This document shows positions 1,848 through 2,126 of a stretch of 10,905 bases of DNA, one piece after another (position 1 is the stretch's first letter; each line of letters opens with the position of its first letter). The notes below the pieces were generated by a model that saw only the letters and a program-made list of their open reading frames with translations, was not told the DNA's origin and did no database searches. The DNA comes from a virus (lineage: Duplodnaviria > Heunggongvirae > Uroviricota > Caudoviricetes): IMG/VR virus record IMGVR_UViG_2874951433_000005. The stretch is one strand, 5' to 3'. Position numbers and translations under genes: made by a program.

Positions 1848-2126
1848 ATGAGCAGAAAAACCCAACGTTACTCTAAAGAGTTCAAAGCCGAAGCTGTCAG
1901 AACGGTTCTTGAAAATCAACTTTCAATCAGTGAAGGCGCTTCCCGATTATCCCTTCCTGAAGGCACTTTAGGACAATGGGTTACCGCCGCCAGAAAAGGG
2001 CTCGGTACTCCTGGTTCCCGCACGGTGGCTGAACTGGAATCTGAAATTCTGCAACTGCGTAAGGCGTTAAATGAAGCTCGCCTTGAGCGAGATATATTAA
2101 AGCGTATTTTGCACAGGAGTCGCTGA
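1848..2126 (+). CDS. IS600-like transposase OrfA, variant C-terminus (92 aa)
   Basis: MSRKTQRYSKEFKAEAVRTVLENQ... is an IS3-family OrfA with HTH. It ends ...DILKRILHRSR, whereas copy 2 ends ...DILKKATAYFAQESLKNTR, because of a 10-bp deletion at about 2100. Confidence 0.85.
   Translation: MSRKTQRYSKEFKAEAVRTVLENQLSISEGASRLSLPEGTLGQWVTAARKGLGTPGSRTVAELESEILQLRKALNEARLERDILKRILHRSR

Follow-up and report, generated by a model that had tools for sequence, protein, structure and literature searches.

A 10-bp deletion at the frameshift site of an IS600 copy in a Shigella flexneri prophage remnant, with probable loss of transposase production

One of the two IS600 copies in the stretch of Shigella flexneri DNA analysed here (10,905 bp, referred to as the window) lacks ten bases at the frameshift site. 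We conclude, with a probability of roughly 0.87, that this element, copy 1, is a defective IS600 in which the deletion removed most of an A7 run and the spacer before a stem-loop, so that the OrfAB fusion protein would no longer be made. From the arrangement of its reading frames we infer that copy 1 has lost both transposase production and autonomous mobility and, following what is known of the IS3 family, it would be immobile unless complemented in trans. Copy 1 is an ordinary decayed mobile-element copy in a Shigella prophage remnant, and the wider significance of the finding is small.

Two inverted copies of IS600 in the window

The source chromosome, CP026799.1, is that of Shigella flexneri NCTC 9728, serotype 5 (PMC9455713), and the window is identical to positions 8154-19058 of the locus L005 taken from it. 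Two copies of a 1.26-kb repeat lie 6.7 kb apart in inverted orientation (Table 1). Hundreds of plasmid records from Shigella and E. coli align with copy 1 at 98.7-99.2% identity. The usual match is 1264 bp long and annotated as 'IS3-like element IS600 family transposase'; one such copy lies on pWR501 of S. flexneri M90T, and this 1264-bp copy served as our reference IS600. Besides the deletion, copy 1 is ~99% identical to copy 2 and to the reference.

IS600 (IS3 family, IS3 group; 1264 bp) is found in Shigella and EIEC. Copy 1 agrees with it in nucleotide identity throughout its length (~99%), in its inverted repeats, in an orfA encoding an HTH_Tnp_1 domain and in an orfB encoding HTH_21 and rve domains with DDE motifs, and its length fits the family range (~1.2-1.5 kb). 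It differs from the reference in lacking 10 bp (318/319 to 327/328), in an orfB that lies in the +1 rather than the -1 frame, and in an altered OrfA tail. Copy 1 is a defective derivative of IS600 rather than a functional member of the family.

The termini of copy 1, TGAGGTAG...ACACCTCA, are those of the reference. Its ends have the form 5'-TG...CA-3', with TGAGGTAGCC... on the left and ...GTACACCTCA on the right, both as in the reference, and imperfect terminal inverted repeats are present: 18 of the first 27 positions of the left repeat match the reverse complement of the right end, including the TGAGGT terminus. A preliminary description of this DNA, made from the sequence alone, had called the ends of copy 1 intact. 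This holds for the inverted repeats, which equal those of the reference, but not for the surroundings, where there is no target-site duplication and the copy joins non-contiguous segments.

Table 1. Positions in the window of the two IS600 copies and of the features at the frameshift site
Feature	Position	Strand	Description
IS600 copy 1	1784-3037	+	1254 bp, the 1264-bp reference minus 10; from alignment to the pWR501 IS600 and copy 2
IRL of copy 1	1784-1810	+	Intact; first 64 nt equal the reference
orfA of copy 1	1848-2126	+	92 aa, C-terminus ..DILKRILHRSR*; from the ORF list; Pfam HTH_Tnp_1
TAA stop in orfB frame, copy 1	2098-2100	+	Created at the junction; from three-frame translation
Deletion junction, copy 1	2100-2102	+	AAAAGCAACA absent between a2101/g2102 or a2100/a2101; AAA remains of A7
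Stem-loop 3' of former slippery site, copy 1	2102-2135	+	Kept in copy 1; GCGTATTTT (2102-2110) pairs with AAAATACGC (2127-2135)
orfB of copy 1	2176-2994	+	272 aa from internal ATG; intact, +1 relative to orfA
IRR of copy 1	3011-3037	+	Intact; last 50 nt equal the reference
IS600 copy 2	9706-10905	-	Cut by window end; full element of 1264 bp in the source chromosome (L005)
orfB of copy 2	9749-10567	-	272 aa from ATG; -1 relative to its own orfA
orfA of copy 2	10603-10905	-	100 aa, canonical C-terminus KKATAYFAQESLKNTR; ends ..DILKKATAYFAQESLKNTR*
10 bp of copy 2 absent from copy 1	10642-10651	-	Reverse complement AAAAGCAACA
A7 slippery run of copy 2	10648-10654	- (T7 on + strand)	In-phase heptamer A_AAA_AAA

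The deletion removes the slippery site

In a pairwise alignment, copies 1 and 2 differ by 6 substitutions in 1200 shared bases, and a single 10-column gap is the sole indel. With one indel separating two 1.2-kb repeats that are otherwise almost the same, coincidence need not be considered. A repeat search gives the same 10-bp offset, with inverted arms at 1848-2101/10652-10905 and 2101-3044/9699-10642. Copy 1 reads GATATATTAAAGCGTATTTT at 2091-2110, and the reverse complement of 10633-10662 in copy 2 reads GATATATTAAAAAAAGCAACAGCGTATTTT. The missing bases, AAAAGCAACA, are present in copy 2 and in the reference. They can be placed at IS600 positions 319-328 or 318-327 (a 1-bp A microhomology) and comprise four of the seven As of the A7 run plus the spacer. 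We refer to this allele, represented by the sequence string TTAAAGCGTATTTTGCAC, as d10.

The preliminary description had reported this 10-bp deletion with coordinates and sequences that proved exact, and had proposed an alignment of both copies with a reference IS600. In that multiple alignment, A7-GCAACA is complete in copy 2 and in the pWR501 copy and is missing from copy 1 alone. It had also assigned to copy 2 the slippery heptamer A-AAA-AAG. A slippery A-run is indeed present, but the orfA frame (TTA AAA AAA GCA ACA GCG TAT TTT) places the in-phase heptamer at A_AAA_AAA, followed by G. The correction is small and leaves the argument unaffected.

RNA folding of the intact and deleted versions yields the same 9-bp stem (about -13 to -14 kcal/mol, with a z-score of only -1.2 to -1.8), formed by GCGTATTTT and AAAATACGC; the intact element has it 6 nt 3' of the heptamer. 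It is plausible that this stem acts as a frameshift stimulator, its predicted stability being modest and not significant against shuffled sequence.

Reading frames and proteins of the two copies

The deletion shortens OrfA from 100 to 92 amino acids and replaces the conserved tail KKATAYFAQESLKNTR with KRILHRSR. The shortened protein scores 73.9 bits against PF01527 (HTH_Tnp_1; cut-off 24.1). OrfA of copy 2 is an exact match to AAN43455.1 and other S. flexneri proteins, on 29 contigs. OrfB of copy 1 carries Pfam HTH_21 along with rve, rve_3 and rve_2 (PF00665 rve, 90.6 bits), scores 336 bits against NF033516 (cut-off 160), and differs from the reference at 2 residues; the motifs WVADLTY, HHSDRGSQY and NAPMESFW, which hold the D, D and E residues, are all present.

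The starts of orfA and orfB are 328 nt apart in copy 1 (1848 and 2176), which puts orfB in the +1 frame, and 338 nt apart in copy 2 (10905 and 10567), which puts it in the -1 frame. An orfB at -1 that overlaps orfA at a slippery heptamer is a trait of the IS3 family; copy 2 and the reference have it, and copy 1 does not (+1, with A7 reduced to A3). The orfB frame of copy 1 does not open until 2101, and with the orfA stop at 2124-2126 the overlap is 23 nt. Frame translation thus bears out two further claims of the initial reading, namely that the deletion took both the slippery motif and the C-terminal motif of OrfA, and that it left orfB at +1 relative to orfA.

At copy 2 the source annotation gives a 385-aa product. 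The RefSeq annotation of intact 1264-bp IS600 is a two-piece joined CDS carrying the note 'programmed frameshift', with a span of 1157 nt that equals 385 codons and a stop minus one base. Since RefSeq treats intact IS600 as a programmed-frameshift gene, copy 1 should be unable to make OrfAB by the frameshift route. A conceptual -1 fusion of copy 2 (..DILKK/SNSVFCTGVAEKY.., also written ..DILKK/SNSVFCTGVAEKYALIEQW..) matches the NCBIfam IS3 transposase model NF033516 in one stretch over positions 1-369 of 369 (413.7 bits). An exact-sequence look-up of this conceptual OrfAB gave no match in the collection; the join between the frames may be set at another residue in the annotated product. Searches of the accessible literature found no experimental study of IS600 frameshifting, and the -1 frameshift is proposed here on the basis of annotation and family homology.

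In IS911, IS3 and IS150, OrfAB is the transposase and OrfA a regulator, and in the studied members of the IS3 family OrfB by itself is not a transposase. Transposition in this family proceeds via a circular intermediate and is catalysed by OrfAB. In intact IS600, ribosomes translating orfA would slip back one base at A_AAA_AAA and go on in the orfB frame to give OrfAB. In copy 1, with the slippery site lost, orfB at +1 and its frame interrupted by a TAA at the junction, ribosomes reading orfA would terminate after a novel 7-residue tail, without an OrfA-OrfB fusion by the normal route. Copy 1 would then be non-autonomous, and mobile only with OrfAB from another IS600, such as copy 2 or one of the dozens elsewhere in Shigella genomes. 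OrfB could be translated alone from the ATG at 2176. Both inverted repeats of copy 1 are perfectly preserved, its OrfB frame is intact and its OrfA retains the HTH domain. The copy is still a substrate for homologous recombination.

Copy 1 can be likened to frameshift-site mutants of IS911, IS3 and IS150 engineered in the Chandler/Fayet, Sekine/Ohtsubo and Rak laboratories, in which destruction of the heptamer reportedly abolishes OrfAB, leaves OrfA production in place and makes transposase necessary in trans. Those mutants carry laboratory point mutations, whereas copy 1 has a naturally occurring deletion, which in addition alters the relation of the two frames and the C-terminus of OrfA. IS600 copies in Shigella genomes are apparently not all autonomous, which bears on the use of IS copy number as a proxy for transposition potential.

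The d10 allele is rare

An exact look-up of the 92-aa OrfA returned only two contigs, CP026799.1 and a 615-bp contig of GCA_900488475.1 (L006); the protein on this contig, SRU61091.1, bears the label 'IS600 ORF1 [Shigella sonnei]'. The d10 junction is identical in this contig. It differs from copy 1 by 3 SNPs, all in the first 170 bp of the element and left of the deletion, and by its left flank, which lies within a prophage tail-fibre gene; other genomes have this gene unbroken. The junction was absent from 5,426 complete E. coli genomes and 72,556 PLSDB plasmids, where the best matches were the alleles d13 and d14 (on plasmids), d3 and d17. It was likewise absent from metagenome contigs in a variable-gap scan (gaps 0-18; 41 contigs returned) and from ~184 sampled IS600 copies (44 GTDB and ~140 IMG/VR).

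The GTDB and IMG/VR samples had not been selected for deletions. All 44 stretches from GTDB representative genomes were intact at the frameshift site; 24 came from S. flexneri SFBU1023, 19 from 'E. coli' ECMA0423 and 1 from a Streptomyces-labelled contig. In IMG/VR loci 129 of 140 copies were intact, and the rest had mostly one-base changes in the length of the A-run, which may be sequencing noise. The intact arrangement is the norm in both samples (44/44; 129/140) and is the one that RefSeq annotates as a programmed frameshift, which argues against the arrangement of copy 1 being the functional form, an outcome the preliminary description had allowed for. The d10 element is an unremarkable representative of a familiar IS, probably inactivated not long ago, and only the particular allele is new.

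It should also be noted that the Streptomyces-labelled contig (L026; NZ_JBNGGG010000135.1, Streptomyces sp. UG1) is a 1380-bp low-coverage contig with the exact IS600 frameshift region, most likely E. coli or Shigella contamination of the Streptomyces assembly.

Both copies join non-contiguous DNA in a Qin-like prophage

The DNA between the two copies belongs to a Qin-like cryptic prophage with ydfV, relBE, hokD, rem, ydfU, rusA, a Q-like antiterminator, two tRNA-like genes and a holin, and the prophage sits between the ynfEFGH side and ydfJ/ydfI. No 3-bp target-site duplication was found at copy 1 (TCC at 1781-1783, CTG at 3038-3040) or at copy 2 (GAC and CCC; 9703-9705 and L005 19123-19125). 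The left flank of copy 1 continues as ..TCAGTCC/CACGAC in an E. coli phage gene near ynfE, and the right flank is K-12 Qin sequence, ..AGCAACA/CTGACATGC. At copy 2, the IRR flank is the holin gene, with the empty site ..ATCTGAC/TAACCTG, and the IRL flank adjoins an MFS transporter gene that we take to be ydfJ. At the sites of copies 1 and 2, all fetched loci showed empty sites only, without IS600.

The missing duplication points to secondary rearrangement and not to another family. In the E. coli empty sites, the two flanks of each IS600 copy are not contiguous. Each copy therefore marks a joint where an IS-associated deletion or recombination cut back the prophage, and together they illustrate IS-associated genome reduction in Shigella. 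The parts of the prophage that are lost are the flxA-dicA side and the lysis-tail side.

The two left flanks of d10 mean that 'immobile' is not absolute for this allele, which has moved or recombined at least once. The simplest account would be a crossover between IS600 copies 5' of position 318, which fits because the three SNPs all lie left of the deletion; mobilisation in trans is another, less simple possibility. The left flank of L006 was also considered as the ancestral left flank of copy 1, since both end in CTG. This was rejected, as the composite empty site is contiguous in no E. coli genome and the L006 flank is the tail-fibre gene.

It is improbable that the deletion was functionally selected, either because the modified OrfA represses other IS600 copies or because the element is regularly mobilised in trans as a MITE-style non-autonomous element. 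OrfA of copy 1 does keep its HTH domain and most of its coiled-coil region, OrfB shows no further decay, and d10 occurs with two different left flanks in two strains. Against this, the exact 92-aa OrfA occurs on only two contigs in the protein index, and the position of copy 1 between non-contiguous segments, with no target-site duplication, makes rearrangement rather than transposition the explanation of the changed flank; the distribution of the three SNPs fits a crossover.

Several minor features of the window were observed. The frame of the Q-like antiterminator (6324-7145) has an in-frame stop at ~6789-6791 that splits it into ORFs at 6324-6791 and 6819-7145, and it is probably a pseudogene in a cryptic prophage. 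Two tRNA-like sequences lie 3' of it (7290-7545), as in lambdoid/Stx-type prophages, and no toxin genes follow them. At the left edge, an IS629/IS1203-like orfA on the minus strand (1-327) is cut by the window start, with a left end at ~385. Beside it, a 224-aa ORF (401-1075) resembles an HTH protein fused to an IS66-family TnpA-like segment. IS elements are thus densely nested across positions 1-1075, left of copy 1.

Alternative recoding and sequencing error

A fused transposase could still arise from copy 1 if a +1 or -2 ribosomal shift, or transcriptional slippage, took place in the 23-nt overlap (2101-2123). The overlap is small, open from 2101 up to the orfA stop, and an SD-like AGGAG just 5' of CGC_TGA loosely recalls the +1 frameshifting of prfB. 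However, in AAG CGT ATT TTG CAC AGG AGT CGC TGA none of the 8 sense codons permits +1 tRNA re-pairing, and no homopolymer exceeds 4 for transcriptional slippage. The great rarity of d10, compared with the occurrence of the in-frame fusion allele d17 at several sites, is also not the pattern suggestive of an active element. We consider such recoding very unlikely and favour the loss of OrfAB production from copy 1.

That the 10-bp difference is a sequencing or assembly artefact of the source chromosome, which the preliminary description had raised, is scarcely credible: the site does contain an A7 homopolymer, and public assemblies often miscount this run by one base (among the IMG/VR copies, 9 lack a base there and 2 have one extra, with similar noise at the other A7 run near position 1220), but a clean 10-bp loss that takes in the non-homopolymer GCAACA is unlike a homopolymer error, and the independent assembly GCA_900488475.1 shares both the junction and the 92-aa OrfA exactly, in a copy that has another flank and 3 SNPs.

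Other deletion alleles at the frameshift site

IS600 positions ~316-337 (2097-2110 in copy 1; 10633-10656 in copy 2) were found to carry at least eight natural deletion alleles within ~20 nt. This interval lies between ATATATTA and TTGCAC, and the alleles come from loci L002, L003, L004, L007 and L052-L092. They include d3 (two versions), d4, d5, d10, d13 (EIEC plasmid), d14 (EIEC pINV) and d17; d17 accounts for 33 of the 41 metagenome matches, mostly from one locus beside lpxM. The alleles d5, d14 and d17 put orfA and orfB in one frame, whereas d10 and d13 leave orfB out of frame. The fusion alleles d14 (EIEC pINV) and d17 (beside lpxM) resemble d10 in falling in the same ~20-nt interval with a left boundary in the same A-run. 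They and d5 differ from it in that a single open frame is restored, and d14 and d17 are annotated as single-piece transposases.

The d17 allele is widespread beside lpxM in E. coli. It was found at further sites too, and at one of them (L063) a clean 3-bp AAC duplication flanks it; a naturally fused allele has therefore transposed. At each of two independent insertion sites both d3 and d17 were seen (L057 and L063; at the lpxM locus, L007 and L004 with L054), which suggests either that deletion went in steps, from d3 to d17, or that copies underwent gene conversion.

A tentative reading, which we hold to be possible but on balance doubtful, is that positions ~316-337 (A-run, spacer and 5' stem arm) are a genuine deletion hotspot and that small deletions at the recoding site toggle IS600 activity in natural populations. 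Its products would be 'dead' copies (d10, d13 and d4) and constitutively fused, OrfA-less transposase genes (d5, d14 and d17). Such lesions might start at the A-run and hairpin; another possible origin is an IS30-like element, found right after ..AAAAAAAGCAAC, that inserts and later excises. In IMG/VR, four control intervals of the same geometry gave 0 deletion alleles, compared with 3 matches at the frameshift interval, all 3 of which have the 48-nt span of d17 and so represent one allele only. An unbiased indel survey of ~158 copies found 1 multi-base allele inside the interval and 4 outside. The allele-rich samples had been selected for deletions at the frameshift interval, and the test for a hotspot is suggestive but underpowered. 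This cluster of recoding-site alleles, some of them OrfA-OrfB fusions, is the only part of the present findings that is possibly worth more work.

A truncated IS600 with the OrfA variant P0004 is present on at least 1000 contigs and ends at position 327, right after ..AAAAAAAGCAAC. At that point the end of an IS30-like element (TGTAGATTCAATCTGTCAATGC) follows directly, as seen in L096 at 3001-3340 (EDL933 ure island) and in L097. The d4 allele (..GCAAC-TG-TTTTGCAC) is possibly an excision footprint of this IS30-like element.
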